A program made the translations under genes and the position numbers. A DNA stretch of 64,000 bases from Nitrospirota bacterium. Lineage in GTDB: Bacteria > Nitrospirota > UBA9217. Within the stretch, counting starts at the first letter, position 1. Each line of letters opens with the position of its first letter. Below the pieces are notes generated by a model that ran no database searches, had not been told where the DNA came from, and saw nothing but the letters and a program-made list of their open reading frames with translations. The stretch is from NCBI GenBank assembly GCA_963755045.1, contig CAVWIL010000007.1:485243-549242 (forward strand), given 5' to 3'. Of the stretch, positions 2,138-62,140 are shown one piece after another.

Positions 2138-2275
2138 GTTTTTCGAGGTCCGTTCTCCAATAGTCTGTGCTTTAGTCCAAATATACACGTTTCAATTACA
2201 CGCACCTAAACATCTAAAATATTCCACGATAAAGCCAAACCCTTCGCGAGAGGGGGACGGAAAGCGGCGGATCAC

Positions 2276-2866
2276 ATGTGCACCCATCAGAAAATATCCA
2301 AAAAGAAAATCGGCGAACTCCTGATCGAGGCGAGTTATGTACAACCGCATCAAATCGATCACGGCTTAAAGCTCCAGCAAAAACTCGTGACCGCGGCTCT
2401 TGTTGCGGCGCTATCGATGGCGAACGTAGTCGGCGTCCAGGAGGCTTGCGCTGGGAGCTCCGCAGGCTCCGTAGCGAGCGCAAAAGTCACTATCAGCGCC
2501 AGGGTCCTTGAAAGCACGAGAATGCAAATACTCAACCAGGTTCAGGAATTGGTTGTTACCGACGCGGATATTATGCGCGGCTATGTGGAAGTTCCCTCGG
2601 CCTCCCGCGTTACGGTTAAGAGCAATAACCCTTCAGGATATTTGCTGTCATTCGAAGTCATGAGCGGGACCGATGCTATTTTTCATACAGTGAATGTGAT
2701 CGTAGGCGGCCGTGATGTTCAGCTGTCACCAGGCGGGAGTTGGATCCCCCAGCCGTACAACCGGGGTGGTGTAACGACGGATGTGAGTTATCGGTTTGCT
2801 CTGGGAAAGAGCGCTCGGCCGGGGACCTACAGCTGGCCGGTGATGGTCTCTGTCCAGTCGATGTAG
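2276..2866 (+). CDS. hypothetical exported or membrane-anchored protein with a MshEN-like N-terminal motif
   Basis: N-terminus KKIGELLIEASYVQPHQIDHGLKLQQK resembles the RLGxxLLxxGLIxxxxLxxxLxxQ c-di-GMP-binding MshEN motif. It is followed by a hydrophobic segment LVTAALVAALSMANVVGV and a beta-rich region. The start codon is uncertain. Confidence 0.3.
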   Translation: MCTHQKISKKKIGELLIEASYVQPHQIDHGLKLQQKLVTAALVAALSMANVVGVQEACAGSSAGSVASAKVTISARVLESTRMQILNQVQELVVTDADIMRGYVEVPSASRVTVKSNNPSGYLLSFEVMSGTDAIFHTVNVIVGGRDVQLSPGGSWIPQPYNRGGVTTDVSYRFALGKSARPGTYSWPVMVSVQSM

Positions 2867-3109
2867 ATAATCCGCTTGGTAATAACAGTAATAAAGCGCA
2901 AGAGCTCCTCGGTGAGGAGCTCATCAAGCTACAAGCTGTAACGGTGCTTGTATTTCACTGTCTACGCTTTAGTGCCCAGATTCACACCTCAAATTATAAC
3001 TTCAAGTTGACTCTATGAAATCCTGCGTGATACACTCCTTTAATTTGACCTTGGTAATTAGATAATGTATGATATAAAAAAATAGGGCACTAAACAGAGG
3101 AGGGCTATC

Positions 3110-3331
3110 GTGCCGAAACAGAATTGTTGGGAGTTCAAGAAATGCGGCCGCGAGGTTGGTGGAGTAAAAGAAAAGGAGCTCGGGACGTGTCCAGCAAACG
3201 TAACACGGGAATTGGATGGGACCCACGGCGGCAAGAACGCGGGCAGGGCTTGCTGGATAGTGTCGGGTACGATGTGCGGGTCGTCAAACAAGAGGAGGGC
3301 AACAAATACATTTTTGCCCCGTCTCTTCTGA
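3110..3331 (+). CDS. small cysteine/tryptophan-rich protein resembling the 'two-CW' sensory domain of deltaproteobacterial signalling proteins
   Basis: GTG start preceded by a GAGGAGG RBS. Two copies of a C-W-containing motif: NCWEFKKCGRE ... GTCPA ... GRACWIVSGTMCG. Lies immediately upstream of a PAS-GGDEF gene. The family assignment is from memory. Confidence 0.5.
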   Translation: MPKQNCWEFKKCGREVGGVKEKELGTCPANVTRELDGTHGGKNAGRACWIVSGTMCGSSNKRRATNTFLPRLF

Positions 3332-3495
3332 ACAAGGTACGTAAGGCGTAAGCAGCCTCTTGTACATAATACGGAGGATCAGATGGAAAATAAAATGTTT
3401 GCAAAAAAACTCTTTACAGTTTCTCTTATACTGTTTTTCCACGTTTGTGGCAGTGACGCTGGTTCCCTTTTGTTAGGAACATTAAAATAGCGGAG

Positions 3496-4392
3496 GTGGT
3501 CTTGTCCAGCAATCAAGAGTTGCAACTATTCCGTAAACTCATCCACAAAACAAATGACGCTATCTTTATAGCAGACGCAGAAACAGCACGCATTATCGAC
3601 GTCAATGACATGGCATGCACAAGCACGGGTTACAACCGGGAGGAACTTCTCTCCATGCATGTTATGGATATGGATGCAGTTACAATAACGCCTTCCCAGT
3701 GGAAAGAGCAGGTAAAGGCGTTCCGGGAAAAGGGGAATATTATTGAAGCTTCGCATAGGCGAAAAGACGGCACAACCTTCCCTGTTGAGATAAGTGTCAG
3801 CTATTATCCCCTTGATGACCATAATGGGTACATAATCGGCATCGCCCGTGACATAACCGATCGCAATAGGGCAAACGAGGAGCTGAAACGTCTACATGAG
3901 ATCCTTATACGTCAGGCATCAAGCGATCCTCTGACCGGAATATTCAACCGGACAAAATTCAATGAGGTCTTGGGGATAGAGATCGCTCGGTCTAAACGGT
4001 TCACACTACCTCTCTCGCTCATCATGATGGACATTGACCGTTTCAAGGAAATAAACGACACCTATGGACATAATGTCGGCGACAATGTTTTGCGGGAATT
4101 CGCTTCAAGAGTGTCAAAGTTCATTAGAAAGAATGATCTCTTCACAAGATGGGGCGGTGAAGAGTTTATGATTTTGGTCACTAATGTGACAAGAAGCGGC
4201 ACAGTGATATTTGCCGAGAAGCTCCGCCTTGAGATTGAAGCGTTCGACTTCTCGCCAGTTGGGCGTATAACCTGCAGTTTTGGCGTGACTGAATTCGAAA
4301 AAAACGACACTATCGATTCTTTCATAAAGAAAGCGGATATTGCCCTGTATCGTGCAAAATCTGCTGGAAGGAATCGGGTAGAATCGAGTTAA
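3496..4392 (+). CDS. PAS-domain diguanylate cyclase (GGDEF domain, GGEEF active site)
   Basis: PAS region followed by a GGDEF domain (RWGGEEF, DRFKEINDTYGH). Possible TTG start at 3502, 6 nt after a GGAGG RBS. Confidence 0.9.
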   Translation: MVLSSNQELQLFRKLIHKTNDAIFIADAETARIIDVNDMACTSTGYNREELLSMHVMDMDAVTITPSQWKEQVKAFREKGNIIEASHRRKDGTTFPVEISVSYYPLDDHNGYIIGIARDITDRNRANEELKRLHEILIRQASSDPLTGIFNRTKFNEVLGIEIARSKRFTLPLSLIMMDIDRFKEINDTYGHNVGDNVLREFASRVSKFIRKNDLFTRWGGEEFMILVTNVTRSGTVIFAEKLRLEIEAFDFSPVGRITCSFGVTEFEKNDTIDSFIKKADIALYRAKSAGRNRVESS

Positions 4393-4667: not shown

Positions 4668-5105
4668 ATGAACGATCTACTGTTAGAAGGCTATCCGATT
4701 GTAATAGAAATTCCCGTTGCCTGGGGCGAGATGGATTCATTCCAGCATGTGAACAACATCGTTTACTTCCGCTACTTCGAGAGTGCGCGCATTCTCTACT
4801 CCGAGAAGCTCGGACTGCACAGGATGAAAGACGAGACCGGCATCGGCCCCATCCTCGGTTCGACGAGCTGTTCGTACAAACTTCCCCTCACCTATCCCGA
4901 TACGGTCTCAGTAGGCACAAAGGTCACGGGCATCGAAGAAGACCGGTTCAAAATGAAATATGTGGTCGTGAGCCACCGTCACCAGAGGATCGCCGCTGAA
5001 GGCGACGGTGTGGTCGTGATGTACAATTATCGCGAAGGCAGGAAGGTTGCGGTCCCGGAAGAAATAAAGAAGCGGATCCTTGCCATGGAAAAAGGATCAG
5101 GTTAG
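4668..5105 (+). CDS. acyl-CoA thioesterase, 4HBT/YbgC-like hotdog fold
   Basis: ATG at 4668 after a GGGAG RBS. Hotdog-fold thioesterase pattern (VAWGEMDSFQHVNNIVYFRYFE). Confidence 0.7.
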   Translation: MNDLLLEGYPIVIEIPVAWGEMDSFQHVNNIVYFRYFESARILYSEKLGLHRMKDETGIGPILGSTSCSYKLPLTYPDTVSVGTKVTGIEEDRFKMKYVVVSHRHQRIAAEGDGVVVMYNYREGRKVAVPEEIKKRILAMEKGSG

Positions 5106-5298
5106 ACGAGTAATTGGATTGAATCGTATGGTAATGAGGTTTGAGCGGGTCTGAAAAAATAAATAGCGTAGCGAGTTATAAATCTCTTTACATAAGCCGT
5201 CATTCTGAGCGCAGCGAAGAATCTTGTATTTTCAGGCCGATGCCGGACCCTTCACTCTTCAGGGTGACAGCTTAAGAAAAGAAGTTACACCCACTTCA

Positions 5299-6739
5299 CT
5301 AGGTCGTATCTCTCGAAGGAATTTTAAGTTTTTGACCGACACGGAGGTGTTTTCCATGCTTGAGGTTGTTCGTCTCCACGATCCTCTGGATGCTTGTGCG
5401 ATATCGTATCGCGATCGTCGAAAGGGTTTCTCCCCTTCTCACCCGATGAACAACATATTTGACCTGCGGAGGAGACCATTTTGGCAGGGTATCGATTTTG
5501 GCAAGCAGCGCGTCTTTCATTCCAAAAGGGACCTTGAGGTCATATACCGTATTCGGCGTGGCCGCGTACCGCAGCTCGGCGTTCAGGTTCACCAGGTCAT
5601 CATATGAACAAGAGATATTTTCCGAGATTTTTGAGAGTTGCAAAGGCTTTTCAATGGCCACGACTTCATAGGGAATGCGTTTTTCCAGTTCATCAAAGGT
5701 GAAGCCGTACTTGGCCGGATCTTTGAGGATCGTGAGGACAGCGAGGAAGCGCGGATAGTACCGGGCTGTCTCGCGCGGAAGCCGCCCATAGAGGTCCCAG
5801 AAATTATCGAGGTAGTCGATCTTCTGCTGCCTGATGACCCGTAACACGTTCCCTTCCCCGCAATTGTACGCAGCGAGCACTGTTGCCCAGTCGCCGAACA
5901 TCTGGTGGAGCTCCTTGAGGTACGCTATGGCCGCAGCCGTGGACTTATCGGGATCGAGCCGTTCATCGACCCATGAGGTGCGTTTGAGACCGAACTTATA
6001 GCCCGTTGAAGGTATGAACTGCCAGAGGCCGAGGGCACGCGCCTTGGAATAGGGCCCTAACCTTGAACCCGCTCTCGATCAGGGGGAGCCACGTGATCTC
6101 CTCGGGAATCCCTGCTTCGTGAAAGGATTTTACCATCTCGTCCCGGTATCTGCCCGAGCGCTTATAGGATTCAATAAAATAATCCCGTTCGATGGTTTGG
6201 AAAGACTTGATCTCACGCTCCACATGTTCATTCATGACAAGGGGTATTTCCTTGTGCAGGCCGTTCACCGAAGTGAGGCGCGACGTATATATCTCCATGA
6301 GCCTCTTCGAGATCACGAACCGCAGATCATCCTTCTGCTGGCTGCTCTTTCCTTCAGCGTCCGCCGGCGTTTTCAGGATGAGTGCGTATGCATGGTCCAG
6401 GGCCTCGACAGCTTTCTCGGCATCTCCCGCCGCCCAGAGCTCATGTGAGGTCTCAGTAAGTTCAAGCGCTGTATCGAGGAGGCTCTCCTCTGCCGGCACA
6501 ACGTTCCCGTTCTTGGTATCTTCCTCGGGTGAATCTTCCTCGTCATCCCCCGCTTCTGCGTTTTGATCGGGTTGAGGGTTTGCCTGATCGAGCAGCACGC
6601 CGGCTGCGCCATTTTCGGCAACCGAGGACTGTAAGCTCGCGATGTGCTGAGCCGGCTTCTCCGGAGATGTGTGTGCGGCACAACCGATCAGAAGAAAAGA
6701 TGAGATGATTGCAGCGTATGATATACCGAGTGTTTTCAT
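5299..6739 (-). pseudogene. membrane-bound lytic murein transglycosylase (SLT domain plus C-terminal LysM; MltD-like lipoprotein), interrupted by a frameshift near 6045-6065
   Basis: N-terminal part (ORF 5996..6781, lipoprotein signal LLIGCAAH, IESGF) and C-terminal part (ORF 5299..5901, AYNCGEGNV and LysM) lie in different frames. The SLT motif SKARALGLWQFIPSTG is readable only after a 1-nt shift. Confidence 0.75.
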
Positions 6740-6875
6740 GTTCATGCAACGGATAGTACTCCATGTTGCACGCAAATGCAATTATTTTTTTATTGGATGT
6801 GGCTTGCCTTGCAAAACAGGATGAATAACGGTATAGTATGCGTGCTTTCTTTCCACTGTCCGGTGAACTAGGCCT

Positions 6876-18653: not shown

Positions 18654-20160
18654 TCAGCAACTCGCAAACTCGATTAATTTACTCTTCTCCTTCTTCATCT
18701 GCGGGAACAGGATGACGTCACGGATGGAGCTGGCTCCCGTAAGGAGCATCACCAGGCGGTCGATGCCGATCCCCTCTCCGGCGGCCGGGGGCATGCCGTA
18801 CTCGAGTGCGCGTATGAAGTCTTCGTCCATCTGGTGGGCCTCTTCGTCCCCTGCCTCGCCTTCCGAAACCTGCTTAAGGAACCGCTCTTTCTGGTCCACC
18901 GGGTCGTTCAACTCGGAGAAGGCGTTCGCCAGTTCCCTCCCGACAACGAACAGCTCGAACCGCTCAACAAAATTCGGATTGTCGTCACATTTCTTCGACA
19001 GCGGCGATATGTCCGTCGGGTAGTCGGTAATAAAAGTGGGTTGAATAAGCTTGGGCTCGACAAGCGCCTCGAAGATCTCATTCAGTACCTTTCCCAAAGG
19101 TTCTCCGCCCGTAAGGTGCGCGCCGAGTTTTTTCGCATACTCCCGGGCCTTCACACCATCGGTCAGGACCTCGTCGGATACGCCTGCTTCGCGAAGCGCG
19201 TCGAGGTAGGTTGATCCGCTTCCAGGGCGGCGAAAGATTGATCAGGTGTCCCTCATATTCCACTTCGGTCTTGCCGAGGACATCCTGTGCTATGCTGCTG
19301 ATCATCTGCTCGGTCATGTCCATGAGGACGCGGTAATCAGCATAAGCCGTATAGAATTCGAGCATGGTGAACTCGGGATTATGGCGCGTGGAGATGCCTT
19401 CATTCCTGAAATTGCGGTTGATCTCGTAGACCCTTTCAAAACCGCCCACGAGGAGCCGCTTAAGGTACAGCTCCGGCGCGATGCGCAGGAAAAGGTCCAT
19501 GTCCAGGGCGTTATGGTGGGTCTTGAACGGCTTTGCCGTCGCCCCGCCTGGAATGGACTGCATCATCGGCGTCTCGACCTCGATGTACCCGCGTTCGTTC
19601 AGAAAGCCCCTGATCGCCTGGACGATCTTCGTGCGGAGCAGAAAAACCTTTCTGACATCCGGATTCACGATCAGGTCCAGATACCGCTGTCGGTAGCGGA
19701 GCTCGACATCCGTCAAGCCGTGCCATTTTTCGGGCAATGGGCGGAGCGATTTTGAGAGGAGCGTAAATTCCTCGATGTCGATCGTAAGTTCATTGGTCTT
19801 GGTACGGAACAGAAAACCCTTCACGCCCATGAAGTCGCCGATGTCGAGCTTTTTAAAGAAAGCGTATTTGTCCTCGCCAAGCGTGTTTTTCTGGAAATAG
19901 AACTGGATCCTTCCCGATCCGTCCTGGAGATGGCCGAAACCCGCCTTGCCGAAGCTCCTCATGGCAACGATACGTCCGGCAACAACGATATCAACCCGCG
20001 TTTTTTCAAGGTCTTCCTTGCTCGTTTGTCCATACTGGTCGATAAGGCCCTGTGCGGAAACAGACACGTCGAACCTTCCCGCATACGGACGAATGCCCAT
20101 CGCGCTGATCTCTTCACGCTTCTTAAAGCGCTGCTGGATCAACTCGTTGTGATCTTCCAT
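18654..20160 (-). pseudogene. lysS: lysine--tRNA ligase (class II), interrupted by a +1 frameshift near 19205-19215
   Basis: ORF 19078..20160 matches LysS until [12 protein letters not shown] and then goes out of frame. ORF 18654..19154 carries the C-terminal part. Removing one base in CGGATCAACCTAC restores ...[13 protein letters not shown]... Lys-RS is essential, so a sequencing error is likely. Confidence 0.85.
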
Positions 20161-48586: not shown

Positions 48587-49464
48587 TTGACAACCTCCTT
48601 AAGGTAAATAGTGTGGGTATCTTTTCGCGCAGACTCAGAAAACCTCTTAGGGCCTGGTCTTTCTCCGGAAACATACAGGACGTTGATAATGCACAGCACA
48701 GTGCAAAAAAACCTTGTCTTCATTGGCAACTGTTTTTAATGCACAAATTTGCCGGGGGTGGATAGGGGGTCAGATGATGCTGACCGATTATATTACACAG
48801 CCTGTTTTTGTCAAGGATTTCATTACAAGAAACGTGTTGTTTGAATGCAGATTTGAACCAGCGTATAATCCCAGAAACCTGATTGGGGTCTGTCATGAAT
48901 CATCTGTTCTCAGAAGGTTGTCTAAGCTGGCACTGATCCATGTGTGCATTGGTTTTTTGGGCAGCTCATCACTCGGCCACGCAGCATGCCGGAAATTTAC
49001 AGTATCTGCGCGCTGATATGCAGGTCTCGCATCACTCCACCCGCGCCCTTTTAAAAAGGGCGCGGCCGTGTCTGCCTTGTCTTGTTCTCGTAAGTACGAT
49101 CTGTGCAGCATTGCTATGCGTGTCTTTCGCTCAGAGCTACCCGGCGCAGGGAACGGCAGAACTTAAAAGGCTTACCCCACTCAGTGGCGAATTAACCTCT
49201 ACGGGGTTTGGGGAGAGACTTATATCTTTGCCTTTCCAGAAGCCCCTGCATCCCATGAACAGGTAAACCCAGCTTTGGGACTTATCTTCTTCAGGTCCAT
49301 GAATCACTCATTATGTATACACATTATACTGAGTTGCGGCTACATTGTCAGGGTTTTCGGCACGGCAGGTGGTTCATTTTGTAATGGGTGAGATAAGGTC
49401 ACGGGGTTAAATCTTCATTCGTTTCATTCACTCGCACCTGAGGTCTTGCGGCTTGACATCCCCC

Positions 49465-57894: not shown

Positions 57895-59107
57895 CTAACC
57901 CGCCGCCGCGCCCATCTGGAATATCGGCATGTACATGGCCACGATCACAAAGCCGACCACGACGCCCAGAAAGATCATGAGCATGGGCTCCAGCATGGAG
58001 GTGAGCGCCGCCACCGCGGAATCCACCTCATCATCGTAGAAGTCCGCGATCTTATTCAGCATGTTGTCGAGCGCGCCCGTCGCCTCACCGACCGAGATCA
58101 TCTGAGACGACCATGGCGGGGAATATTTTTGCCCTTCCCAGCGGATCAGCAAGCGTTTTTCCTTCGCTCACGCTCTGCCGGGTGGCGAGGATCGCCTCTT
58201 CCACGACCTTGTTGCCTGCGGTCCTGGAAACGATCAGCAACCCTTCAAGGATGGGGACCCCGCTGGTAAGCAGCGTGCCGAGGGTGCGCGTAAACTTGGC
58301 AACCGCCACCCTCTGGATCAGCGATCCCGCAACGGGTACTTTTAACGCTATCGCATCGGTCGTTCTCAGCCCGTTTTCTGTTTTCCTGAATTGTTTGAGA
58401 CCAACAAAGAAACCAATAATGACGAAGAGAAGGCTCAGTCCGCCCCAGCCTTTCAAAAAATTGCTGATTGCCATGACAATGCGGGTTGGGAAAGGCAGCT
58501 GCATTTTCGCTTCAACAAAAATGGCGGCCAGCATGGGGACGACGACGACCAGCAGCAGGGAGACCACGGCAACTGCGACGAACAGAATGATCGCGGGATA
58601 TATCATCGCCGATTTGATCTGACCTTTGATCTTTGCGAACTTTTCCATAAACGCGGCGAGCCGCCCGAGAATGGTATCCAGAATACCGCCAGCCTCTCCG
58701 GCGGCAACCATATTGCAATAAAGAGCGTCAAAGATCTTGGGGTGTTTTTTCAGGGCATCGGCAAACGTTGCGCCGCTCTCCACATCGGACCTCACCTGGT
58801 TTACGGTCTTTTGAAGCGTTTTGTTTTCCGTCTGGGTGCCGAGGATATCAAGACACTGCACGAGCGGCAATCCTGCATCGATCATGGTCGCCAACTGCCG
58901 GGTAAAGATCACGATATCTTTATCCTTGACCTTTGGAGCGCCGAAGCTCAACTTGATATCTTTCGGCTTGGCGGTTACATTGATGGGCTGAATATTCTGT
59001 TTCCGAAGGAGCGCGAGCACATCCTCTTTGCTGTTTGCAGCGATCTCGCCCTTCTGGACCGCTCCCTGTCGTGTTTTGCCTTCCCATGTAAATACGCTTG
59101 TTGCCAT
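57895..59107 (-). pseudogene. pilC: type IV pilus assembly platform protein PilC (GspF family), frameshift near 58100-58112
   Basis: ORF 58085..59107 (N-terminal and middle parts) and ORF 57895..58152 (C-terminal QMISVGEATGALD ... VAMYMPIF) are in different frames. One extra base in GTCGTCTCAGATG. Confidence 0.8.
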
Positions 59108-59145: not shown

Positions 59146-60250
59146 TCAGCGGTATTCCTTCCGGACATTCTGCGTCCCTGCAAGGCCGGAGCGCCCAAGC
59201 ATTTGAATAAGTTCGTCGGGATTCGACGACCGGCCGATACAGTCCTCATATGAAATAAATTTTTTGGTATAGAGTTCATACAGCGACTGGTTGAGCGTCA
59301 TCATGCCGAATTTTGACTGGCCGGTCTGCATAATCGAATAGATCTGATGGATCTTGTCCTCCCTGATGAGATTCCGGATAGCGACATTCGGGATCATGAC
59401 CTCAAGAGCGAGCATTCTGCCGCCGCCTATCTTCGGAATGAGCGTCTGGGACATGACGCCCTCGAGAACGAACGACAGCTGTGCCCTGACCTGGGATTGC
59501 TGGTGGGGCGGAAAGACATCGATGATACGATTCATCGTTTGCGCAGCGGAGTTCGTATGGAGTGTCGCAAACGTCAGATGTCCTGTTTCCGCTATGGTCA
59601 GTGCCGCTTCAATGGTTTCGAGATCGCGCATTTCACCGACGAGCACGACATCGGGGTCTTGCCGGAGAATGTATTTCAATGCGTCCTTGAACGACTTGGT
59701 ATCGGCGTTGACTTCCCGCTGGTTTACCAGGCATTTTTTATGCGGGTGGAGATACTCAATCGGGTCTTCGATGGTGATGATATGTTCCTGCCGCTCGCTG
59801 TTGATCTTGTCGATCATCGAGGCCAGTGTTGTCGATTTGCCGCTGCCCGTGGGCCCGGTGACGAGAACGAGTCCTCTCGGCTTCTTGCAGAGGTCGGATA
59901 CGATTTCCGGCAGTCCCAGTTCGTGGAATGTTTTGATCTTAAAGGGGATGGTCCTGACCGCAGCAGCAACAGCGCCGCGCTGCACGAACATGTTCGCGCG
60001 AAAGCGGGACAGGTTCTTTAACGCCGAAGGAGAGGTCAAGTTCGCTGTTCTCTTCAAACTTGTGTTTCTGGGCATCGGTGAGGATGCTGTAACAGAGGTC
60101 CTTGGTCTGCGTGGCGGAAAGGGGTTCCAGTCCAGGGATCAATTTTATCTTGCCGTCAACGCGGATCGATGGTGGGATTCCCGTGGTTATATGCAGGTCG
60201 GATGCACCTTTTTCTATCATGAATTTGAGCAAATCGTGCAGGTTGGCCAT
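59146..60250 (-). pseudogene. pilT: twitching-motility ATPase PilT, frameshift near 60020-60030
   Basis: N-terminal 103-aa ORF (ASDLHITTGIPPSIRVDG) and 309-aa ORF (Walker A GPTGSGKST etc.) are in different frames. One extra G in TTCGGCG. Confidence 0.8.
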
Positions 60251-60305
60251 TATGATGAACCCCTTTTATTGAATACCCGGTTGTACTTCACGCCCGCTGG
60301 TGTCG

Positions 60306-62140
60306 CTAATTCTTATCAGGGAATGTATTCTCAACCACTTCTTCCAGCGAAGTCAATCCCGCCTTCACCTTCAACAGTCCGCTCGCCCGAAGCGTCTTCA
60401 TTCCCCCGCTGACAGCCGCTTTTTTGAGCTCGAAGACCGATGCGCCCTGCAGAACGAGTTCCTTGATGTCGTCCCTGAGCGGCATGACCTCGTAGAGGGC
60501 TACCCTGCCTTTGTACCCGGTCTGGTTGCAGATATCACAGCCTTCCCCCTTGTAGCTCACGATGGTCTTGGCCTCTTCCGGATCGAACCCCGCCTCGATA
60601 AAGGTCTCAACCGGCAGTTTTTGAGGCTTCTTGCATTTCTGGCAGGCCTTCCGTACAAGCCGCTGCGCCACGATCAGGATCACTGCCGAGGATACCAGGA
60701 ACGGTTCAACACCCATGTTAAGCAGACGGTTGATGGTGCTTGGGGCATCATTGGTATGGAGTGTGGAGAGCACCAGGTGGCCGGTGAGCGCGGCCTTGAC
60801 CCCGATCTCCGCGGTTTCATAATCACGGGTCTCTCCCACCATGATGATATCCGGGTCCTGACGGAGAAAGGAGCGGAGCGCCGCGGCAAAGTTGAGCCCG
60901 ATCTCGTCCTTCATCTGGACCTGATTGATACCCATAAGGTTGAATTCCACCGGGTCCTCGGCGGTCATAATGTTTTCGGAATCGGTGTTCAGTTCGCTCA
61001 GCGCCGAGTAGAGGGTTGTGGTCTTGCCGCTTCCTGTCGGGCCTGTCACCAACACCATGCCGAACGGTTTCCCGAGGGCATCCTTGAAATCCGCCAGCTG
61101 GTCCTCATCAAAGCCAAGCTTGGTCATGTCGAGCTGAAGATTCGACTTGTCAAGCAGGCGCATGACGATCTTTTCGCCGAACAGGGTCGGAAGAACGGAA
61201 ACACGAAAGTCCATCACCTTGTTCTTGCTCATCTTGAGCTTGATCCTGCCGTCCTGCGGAAGTCTCCGCTCGGCGATGTCAAGGGATGACATGATCTTTA
61301 TGCGGGAGATGATCGCATTCCTGATCTTGAGCGGAAGACCCATGACCGTTTTCAGAACTCCGTCAAGCCGGTACCGCACCCTGAACTTTTTCTCGTAGGG
61401 CTCGATGTGGATATCGCTCACGCCCGCCTTTGCCGCACGGAGCAGAATGCCGTTCACGAGTTTCACGATCGGCGCTTCAACCTCTTCCGACAACGCGTCC
61501 AGCTTGTCATCTTCAATCACTTCGAGTTCATCGACCGCGCCGTGGACAAGGTTGTCGAAATCATCGACGTCCACCTCTCCGCCGGTATCGATATCATCCA
61601 CAAAGCCGCCGTCATCAGCAGTATCATCCATCGCATAATCTTTGGCATCCAGGGAGATCTTTTTCTCTTCCCGTGGGCGTCCGCTTTGGCCGAAACGAGT
61701 GCCTTGGTGGCACCGCCATAATATTTTTTGACCGCTTCAACAATTGCGCCTTCGGTTGCCACAACAGCTTCAACATTATAGCCGGTCATGAATTTGATGT
61801 CGTCGATGGCGAATATATTGGAGGGGTCGACCATGGCGATGGTGATCGTGGCACCGGCGCGATTGATCGGCATGATGCGGTATTTCTGCGCTACATCCGA
61901 AGGAATATGTTTTATGACAACAGGATTGATCTCGAATTTGCCCAGGTCGACATACGGGACGCCGTACTGTTTACTCAGAAACGTCATCAGCTTGTCTTCC
62001 TGCACGAACCCCATTTTGACCAGGATAGAGCCGAGCCTGCCGCCTTCGTTTTTCTGCGCGGCAAGCGCTTTTTGCAGCTGATCTTCCGTGATCAGACCCG
62101 ACGAAACAAGCATCGCGCCGAGTCTTCCAGACATCGCCAT
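60306..62140 (-). pseudogene. pilB: type IV pilus assembly ATPase PilB (GspE family), frameshift at an A5 run near 61655-61665
   Basis: N-terminal MshEN/T2SSE_N domain in ORF 61517..62140 (LGAMLVSSGLITEDQLQKALAAQ). ATPase core in ORF 60306..61631 (GPTGSGKTT, zinc CxxC...CxxC). Confidence 0.8.

Follow-up and report, generated by a model that had tools for sequence, protein, structure and literature searches.

The subject of this report is a 64,000-nucleotide stretch of DNA from a Nitrospirota bacterium (assembly GCA_963755045.1, contig CAVWIL010000007.1, positions 485,243 to 549,242; hereafter the window, numbered from its first letter), and in particular three open reading frames (ORFs) near its left end, here called g1, g2 and g3. 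An earlier note had described these as a putative cyclic diguanylate (c-di-GMP) module, in which a protein with an MshEN-like motif (g1) and a stand-alone Cys- and Trp-rich protein of the two-CW type (g2) accompany a PAS-GGDEF cyclase (g3). All three ORFs are present on the forward strand as described, but the module does not survive comparison: the adjacency is lacking both in contigs that are 94–95% identical to parts of the interval and in 80 genomic loci, and g1 and g2 are each damaged. The interval is probably a mosaic in which three signalling genes, two of them degraded, were placed independently of one another, and not a co-evolved module; what is new here is partly defective members of already known kinds.

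Several observations bear on the gene order. First, g1-g2-g3 recurs only in contig L009, which is about 97.5% identical over window positions 2179–3964; it is absent from L011, L095 and L001–L008, and from all 80 genomic loci of a synteny survey made up of the best 80 of 502 two-CW relatives (scanned with one genome per species), so that the order is not conserved beyond near-identical strains. Second, the contigs most similar to single parts of the interval have other neighbors: L095, 94% identical over g1, has a different flank downstream and no two-CW gene, and L011, which shares window positions 2980–3404 at 95%, differs in both flanks and has a downstream ORF unrelated to g3. Third, close relatives of g2 are found in unlike surroundings, P0008 (88% identity) behind MCP and CheW genes and P0006 (88% identity) between CBS genes and a glycosylase gene. 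Finally, conservation of the small ORF together with a GGDEF gene, which the earlier note had proposed to check, is not seen from either side. A GGDEF gene adjoins the two-CW gene in none of the 80 loci, GGDEF genes account for just 5 of the 827 crude genes within 5 kb of two-CW genes in those loci, and no two-CW domain is present in any of the 120 best g3 homologues.

The g2 product reads MPKQNCWEFKKCGRE..GTCPA..GRACWIVSGTMCG and contains the two C-W dipeptides on which its assignment was based. The hidden Markov model (HMM) search proposed in the earlier note gives 79.6 bits (E 1.6e-22, cutoff 35) against NCBIfam NF045718 (two_CW_domain), which confirms its membership in the two-CW family; in Pfam, where the family is not modelled, it has no match. 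The alignment covers profile positions 1–63 of 80, less than the full-length domain. A word-indexed protein search returned 438 homologues at E<=1e-3, and the best 120 of these are 68–128 aa long, all but one of them at least 95 aa, with most aligning only to the first ~58 residues of the query. Close relatives (68–95% identity) are 95–128 aa long, the closest intact ones being P0002 (101 aa, 93% identity) and P0003–P0008; in P0002 the sequence GTMCG is followed by GNVQGTFAKKYDNCEKCDFYRVVKQEEGSKYIFAPALLNKIRKA, and the C-terminal part reads ...FYRVVKQEEGSKYIFAPALLNKIRKA.

A 64-nt deletion, with the resulting frameshift, has cost the g2 product its profile positions 64–80 (including Q61, G62, K67, C71 and C74 in P0002 numbering, used throughout) as well as the C-terminal helix. 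The missing segment, CGGCGGG...TTTTAC, is flanked by CGG microhomology: L011 reads GATGTG(CGGCGGG...TTTTAC)CGGGTCGTC where the window has GATGTGCGGGTCGTC, and all four related contigs (L009–L012) contain the 64 nt and place the window-side break at the same junction (Table 1). Beyond the deletion the ancestral C-terminus is still encoded, in a different frame, as far as the ancestral stop at 3351, and a local HMM (from alignment A2) matches with positions 2–59 in the g2 frame and positions 78–100 in another. The residues invariant in a 26-member alignment include C6, W7, C12, C27, H39, C48, W49, Q61, G62, K67, C71, C74 and E84, and the same residues are invariant or more than 90% conserved across 119 members. 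All family-conserved residues from Q61 onward, E84 among them, are gone from the g2 product, and of the six conserved cysteines (C6, C12, C27, C48, C71 and C74) the last two are deleted. The description of a 73-aa Cys/Trp protein thus stands as regards the ORF and its motifs, but not as regards an intact protein. L009 retains the 64 nt and has a lesion of its own: an A-run in its g2 counterpart carries a +1 frameshift, which leaves a 68-aa product. As judged from these alignments, g2 appears to be a truncated and frameshifted allele of a two-CW gene whose product is normally ~101 aa long with six conserved cysteines and one conserved histidine. The deletion between the CGG microhomologies takes out the QG..K...C..C segment and puts the C-terminal helix out of frame, and the product is most likely non-functional because two conserved Cys ligands and the terminal helix have been lost.

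A comparable situation is seen in g1. In the MshEN domain (53 residues) a 5-residue spacer connects two motifs of 24 residues, and each of the two binds one half of the c-di-GMP ligand (PMC5013675). A motif that fits the relaxed consensus is indeed present in g1 and is followed by a transmembrane (TM) segment, as had been noted, but the c-di-GMP-binding domain is not: there is one motif with 10 residues before it in place of two in tandem, and this half of one MshEN scores 19.1 bits against NF053729 (cutoff 38), over profile positions 24–51 of 53. The full-length relatives P0123, P0130, P0137, P0140 and P0141 score 104–125 bits on the same profile and have two or three complete 53-residue MshEN domains (4–6 motifs) followed by a TM helix and a conserved periplasmic domain (alignment A6); the g1 motif corresponds to the last quarter of their MshEN region. 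Among the longer relatives, P0297 (372 aa) falls in the same 90% cluster as g1 and P0123 (315 aa) is 75% identical, the others being P0130, P0137 and P0140. L095 can be aligned with the window only from 2283 on, and the coding sequence upstream of this point (...RFRLGEILVATEQITRKQLEDVLA) has been lost from the window. This breakpoint at about 2283 produces the same truncated form in L009, an independent assembly, and the truncation is therefore not the error of one assembly.

The AlphaFold2 model of g1 has a long helix (residues 24–57) and a beta-sandwich (residues 81–195) with a predicted local distance difference test score (pLDDT) of ~77–95 per 10-residue block, mostly above 89. Foldseek finds weak matches of this model to chaperone-usher pilins (CfaB at E 6.7e-4, FimF/G and CsuE; TM-scores 0.3–0.45), and a profile of g1 relatives matches the N-domains of PilF, MshE and PilB in the PDB. 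We interpret g1 as the 3' 196-codon remnant of a gene for a ~372-aa protein which, when intact, would have three cytoplasmic MshEN domains, a single TM helix and, in the periplasm, a beta-sandwich with a weak likeness to pilins. From the known mechanism of MshEN, the single 24-residue half-site that is left would not be able to enclose c-di-GMP by itself. No usher, chaperone or SCPU gene is present within the window; left with half of a binding site and lacking such pilus partners, g1 most likely does not function as a receptor for c-di-GMP.

The third gene is apparently an intact and ordinary cytoplasmic PAS-GGDEF diguanylate cyclase, in agreement with the earlier assignment. It exceeds the Pfam and TIGRFAM cutoffs for GGDEF (PF00990, 4e-44, 150.6 bits; TIGR00254, 162.8 bits) and also matches PAS_9 (8e-16), and both its active site, of the form GG(D/E)EF, and its RxxD I-site are intact. 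Translation probably begins with the TTG at 3502, for a length of 296 aa, and homologues of the same length include P0303 (98% identity, 296 aa), P0304 (90%) and P0305 (86%), close homologues in general being 295–313 aa long. In comparison with L009 the ratio of nonsynonymous to synonymous polymorphism (pN/pS) is 0.21 for g3 and 0.82 for g1, values that rest on very few substitutions. From what is known of the family, g3 would carry out PAS-regulated, product-inhibited c-di-GMP synthesis, presumably independently of its neighbors.

The three genes are not arranged as a tightly spaced or translationally coupled operon. They are separated by 243 nt (g1-g2) and 164 nt (g2-g3), and the first of these gaps contains a hairpin and a promoter-like site (Table 1), from all of which separate transcription is plausible. 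The hairpin begins 36 nt past the g1 stop, has no T-run after it and is not called by a terminator scan. The promoter-like site falls within the block conserved with L011 and is suggestive only, as such sites are no more numerous in this region than in shuffled sequence.

Table 1. Positions in the window of the three genes and of the features within and between them.
Feature	Positions	Strand	Description
g1	2276-2866	+	196-aa ORF
MshEN-type motif KIGELLIEASYVQPHQIDHGLKLQ	2306-2377	+	g1 residues 11-34; one 24-residue motif; fits relaxed motif of PMC5013675
TM segment of g1 KLVTAALVAALSMANVVGV	2381-2437	+	Hydrophobic; followed by periplasmic beta domain, residues ~80-196
Hairpin	2902-2922	+	Perfect 9-bp stem, 3-nt loop, GAGCTCCTC-GGT-GAGGAGCTC; read directly from sequence
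Promoter-like site	3045-3073	+	TTGACC-17-TATGAT, 10/12 match; 37 nt 5' of g2
g2	3110-3331	+	73-aa ORF
Authentic part of g2			Residues 1-58; residues 59-73 (SSNKRRATNTFLPRLF) are an out-of-frame tail
Deletion junction	3277-3279	+	64 nt missing; exact position ambiguous within 3 nt owing to CGG microhomology
Ancestral g2 frame, remaining part	3277-3351	+	Out of frame; codes for RVVKQEEGNKYIFAPSLLNKVRKA*, which forms the C-terminal helix where two-CW proteins are intact
35-aa ORF MENKMFAKKLFTVSLILFFHVCGSDAGSLLLGTLK	3384-3491	+	Strong GGAGG ribosome-binding site, hydrophobic core; in g2-g3 spacer
g3	3496-4392	+	298-aa ORF
I-site and active site of g3	4126-4167	+	RKND (RxxD)-LFTRW-GGEEF, residues 211-224; regular expression on translation

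The boundaries of the shared segments provide additional information on how the interval is put together. Similarity to L009 begins abruptly at window position 2179 (L009:1301), 97 nt upstream of g1; upstream of this point the window has an IHF-alpha gene and a MerR-like gene and L009 has a DUF4382 gene, and the block 2179–3964 therefore sits in two contexts. At the other side of g2, the similarity with L011 ends at position 3404, which appears to be a recombination or rearrangement breakpoint. The 35-aa ORF in the g2-g3 spacer was considered as a possible further gene and rejected; L009 is without 49 nt inside it, L011 is fully divergent past 3404, and the ORF probably does not represent a gene. 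The surroundings of the breakpoints showed neither repeats nor the ends of mobile elements. The GC content over g2-g3 (0.43–0.48) is mildly lower than the window mean of 0.52, a difference that is not diagnostic. There is no second copy of a two-CW or GGDEF gene within the window, and no RNA element is found anywhere in it with Rfam (at gathering thresholds) or ARAGORN, including, with Rfam, a c-di-GMP riboswitch.

The family to which g2 belongs is a large one. An exhaustive search of representative sequences finds 1797 two-CW clusters at E<=1e-3, corresponding to about 1,800 clusters at 50% identity. The domain had been thought to be normally fused to kinases and cyclases, which would make a separate gene unusual, but the opposite is seen: 91 of the best 150 representative clusters are proteins of 150 aa or shorter (another 31 have the domain N-terminal in a longer protein and 25 have it C-terminal), and 85 of 87 two-CW ORFs in genomic loci are 97–159 aa long. 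Nor is the family centered on Geobacter or Syntrophus, the genera named in the earlier note; its center is in Nitrospirota/Thermodesulfovibrionia. The best 80 of the 502 relatives are almost all from metagenome-assembled genomes (MAGs) of Nitrospirota/Thermodesulfovibrionia, often with several copies per genome.

The proposal that two-CW is a sensory or signalling input domain fared well. Fusions are found to PAS-GGDEF (P0161), PAS-histidine kinase (HK), REC-PAS-HK and adenylate cyclase, as well as to cNMP-Ser/Thr kinase with or without PP2C, and there is a NIT-MCP-two-CW arrangement. Because of these fusions to varied signalling outputs, together with signalling neighbors, two-CW is on present comparisons a signalling input module. 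It is probably a cytoplasmic metal, Fe-S or redox sensor acting in cis or in trans on signalling enzymes, since it has six conserved cysteines and one histidine, has neither a signal peptide nor a TM segment, occurs with a broad range of fusion partners and predominates in anaerobic lineages. Stand-alone copies may act in trans on neighboring signalling enzymes. The AlphaFold2 model of the intact P0002 (101 aa) is confident (pLDDT 89; predicted TM-score, pTM, 0.80) and has no fold match in the PDB (the best Foldseek result has E 5.2 and TM-score 0.22); no PDB entry matches by sequence, and no paper naming the domain was found in the literature searched.

Three other arrangements of two-CW genes were seen. 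In 14–16 Thermodesulfovibrionia MAGs the gene of one stand-alone orthogroup, at ~5001–5300 of the locus, lies on the opposite strand between selB and selA (L016, L036, L044, L046, L047, L060, L065, L068, L069, L075, L082, L083, L087 and others). Two metagenomic proteins, P0147 and P0148 (265 and 187 aa), consist of two tandem two-CW domains. In addition, two-CW genes occur as adjacent paralogue pairs or triplets in L056, L063, L078, L079, L084 and L089.

Two groups of observations weigh against reading the interval as a mosaic of decayed genes. The first concerns the quality of the assembly, for at least three other genes of core function in the window, encoding an MltD-like protein, PilB and PilT, are split by frameshifts. 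The MltD-like lytic transglycosylase gene (LysM+SLT; 5299–6781, minus strand) is present as two ORFs with a 1-nt insertion, an extra T, near 6045–6050 (CTATTCC), and the canonical ...SKARALGLWQFIPSTG... motif reappears once the frame is shifted. Of the two genes for type IV pilus ATPases (59146–62140, minus strand), PilT has a frameshift near 60,020 and PilB one near 61,600–61,660. There are also three suspicious pairs of same-strand ORFs in different frames that overlap by 68–77 nt (18654–20160, minus; 48714–49266, plus; 57895–59107, minus), which look like further split genes. The splits in MltD, PilT and PilB suggest assembly indel errors or widespread pseudogenes, and the lesion in g2, or that in L009, could be an artefact of assembly rather than biology. 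The N-terminus of PilB contains a good MshEN domain, RLGAMLVSSGLITEDQLQKALAAQ-kneGG-RLGSILVKMGFVQEDKLMTFLSKQ.

We have therefore considered whether the g2 lesion, and possibly some of the others, is a minority allele or arose as an artefact of assembly or consensus calling in an error-prone metagenome assembly, such that the real genome has an intact 101-aa stand-alone two-CW gene, one more ordinary member of the family, beside the PAS-GGDEF gene. The split genes are what would be expected of such an assembly; moreover, the lesion in L009 consists of just one additional A within a homopolymer, and the out-of-frame 3' part of g2 has not decayed up to its ancestral stop. Nonetheless, a 64-nt deletion would be an unusual sequencing error, and a clean deletion bounded by microhomology is typical of real slippage and not of a homopolymer miscall. 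Furthermore, the g1 truncation is common to two independent assemblies, so some of the decay is real. We regard an artefact as an unlikely explanation, if one with some weight, and the absence of conserved synteny and the ordinariness of stand-alone two-CW genes would stand even if g2 were intact.

The second group concerns the association of these genes with one another and with signalling. The three genes share a strand and their order recurs in L009; a natural two-CW-PAS-GGDEF fusion, P0161, exists; and the neighbors of stand-alone two-CW genes that lie on the same strand within 150 nt, and which are probable operon partners (n=45), are dominated by signalling domains: HAMP 8, PAS 7, REC 7, HD_5 (HD-GYP type) 6, HisKA/HATPase 5, GAF 3, sigma-54 activators 2 and MCP 2. 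It should also be recognized that the 94–95% identical contigs used for comparison are short metagenome contigs and could carry paralogous copies, and that a former functional link between g2 and g3 may have existed. One form of that link, in which g2 and g3 would be halves of a recently broken two-CW-PAS-GGDEF gene, was rejected. The g2 clade (P0002–P0008) has its own stop codon at ~101–108 aa, and g2 and g3 are not a recent fission because of this; the close g3 homologues are also without two-CW, and identity between g3 and the PAS-GGDEF portion of P0161 is no more than 32%.

These associations could be accommodated in two ways. Stand-alone two-CW proteins could be trans-acting sensor subunits with a Cys6/His metal, Fe-S or redox site, in a fold not in the PDB, docking onto neighboring signalling enzymes (such as PAS-GGDEF, HD-GYP, HAMP/HK or MCP proteins), with g2-g3 a genuine pair that has been recently inactivated or mis-assembled; taken as a whole, we find this proposal rather improbable. 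Alternatively, the interval could be the working module first proposed, with g3 as the cyclase, g2 as its detached redox or metal sensor subunit and g1 as a local membrane receptor for c-di-GMP. The true family membership of g2, the fusion P0161 as a Rosetta stone, the signalling character of the operon partners and the true MshEN domains in intact relatives of g1 are all in keeping with this, but a frameshifted g2 without two of its six conserved cysteines, a g1 reduced to half of one MshEN below the family cutoff, long gaps holding a hairpin and a separate promoter-like site, the missing adjacency in the related contigs and in 80 of 80 loci, the low identity of g3 to P0161 and the lack of two-CW fusions among the 120 closest g3 homologues make it very unlikely indeed. 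The possibility that the 73-aa ORF is spurious and owes its Cys/Trp content to chance, for which its small size and lack of a Pfam match might speak, is ruled out to near certainty by the NF045718 match and by the numbers of homologues and representative clusters.

With the mosaic thus remaining the probable account of the interval, the locus itself is of very little significance, since all that it adds is one defective member of an already catalogued family, a receptor gene that has been cut short and a cyclase of the usual kind, and it serves as a warning of several split genes in the assembly of the window. Only two leads are worth following, and both are independent of this locus: the uncharacterized fold of two-CW and the occurrence of MshEN proteins with chaperone-usher loci. 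The two-CW family is large, cytoplasmic and Cys-rich and is found on almost every class of bacterial signalling output, which makes it a reasonable target in looking for a sensory cofactor site of a new kind. An undescribed link of c-di-GMP to SCPU-type chaperone-usher pilus loci is suggested by the full-length relatives of g1. Two of them are encoded within SCPU/PapD_N/Usher loci of the archaic chaperone-usher type, P0135 in L013 (L013:4423-10265) and P0130 in L014 (L014:126-6939), and the L014 locus adjoins a PAS-GerE regulator. A two-term full-text search of the literature for MshEN together with chaperone-usher found no paper describing such a protein. These proteins could take part in the assembly of chaperone-usher pili as a component that responds to c-di-GMP, and may belong, as inner-membrane components gated by c-di-GMP, to the archaic type of such pili.

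Each of the three genes can be set beside a better-known counterpart. The g1 product retains one relaxed-consensus motif where the domain of the type found in Vibrio cholerae MshE (PDB 5HTL; Wang et al. 2016, PMC5013675) has two, and its output part is a TM helix with a periplasmic beta-sandwich in place of an ATPase or a glycosyltransferase. It is homologous to the C-terminal 196 aa of the SCPU-type locus proteins P0130 and P0135 at 47–58% identity (75–92% for closer relatives), but these differ in having two or three complete MshEN domains and SCPU, PapD_N and Usher neighbors that are absent from the window. The g2 product shares N5, C6, W7, C12, R14, C27, H39, G45, R46, C48 and W49 with the NF045718 profile. 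The metagenomic fusion P0161 (388 aa) has its domains in the same order as g2 then g3, but is a single polypeptide with an SGDEF A-site. Finally, g3 resembles the PAS-GGDEF cyclases of the PleD/WspR type in its PAS domain, GGEEF active site and RxxD site five residues upstream, an architecture common to thousands of homologues, and apart from having neither a receiver domain nor a TM segment there is nothing that sets it apart from them.

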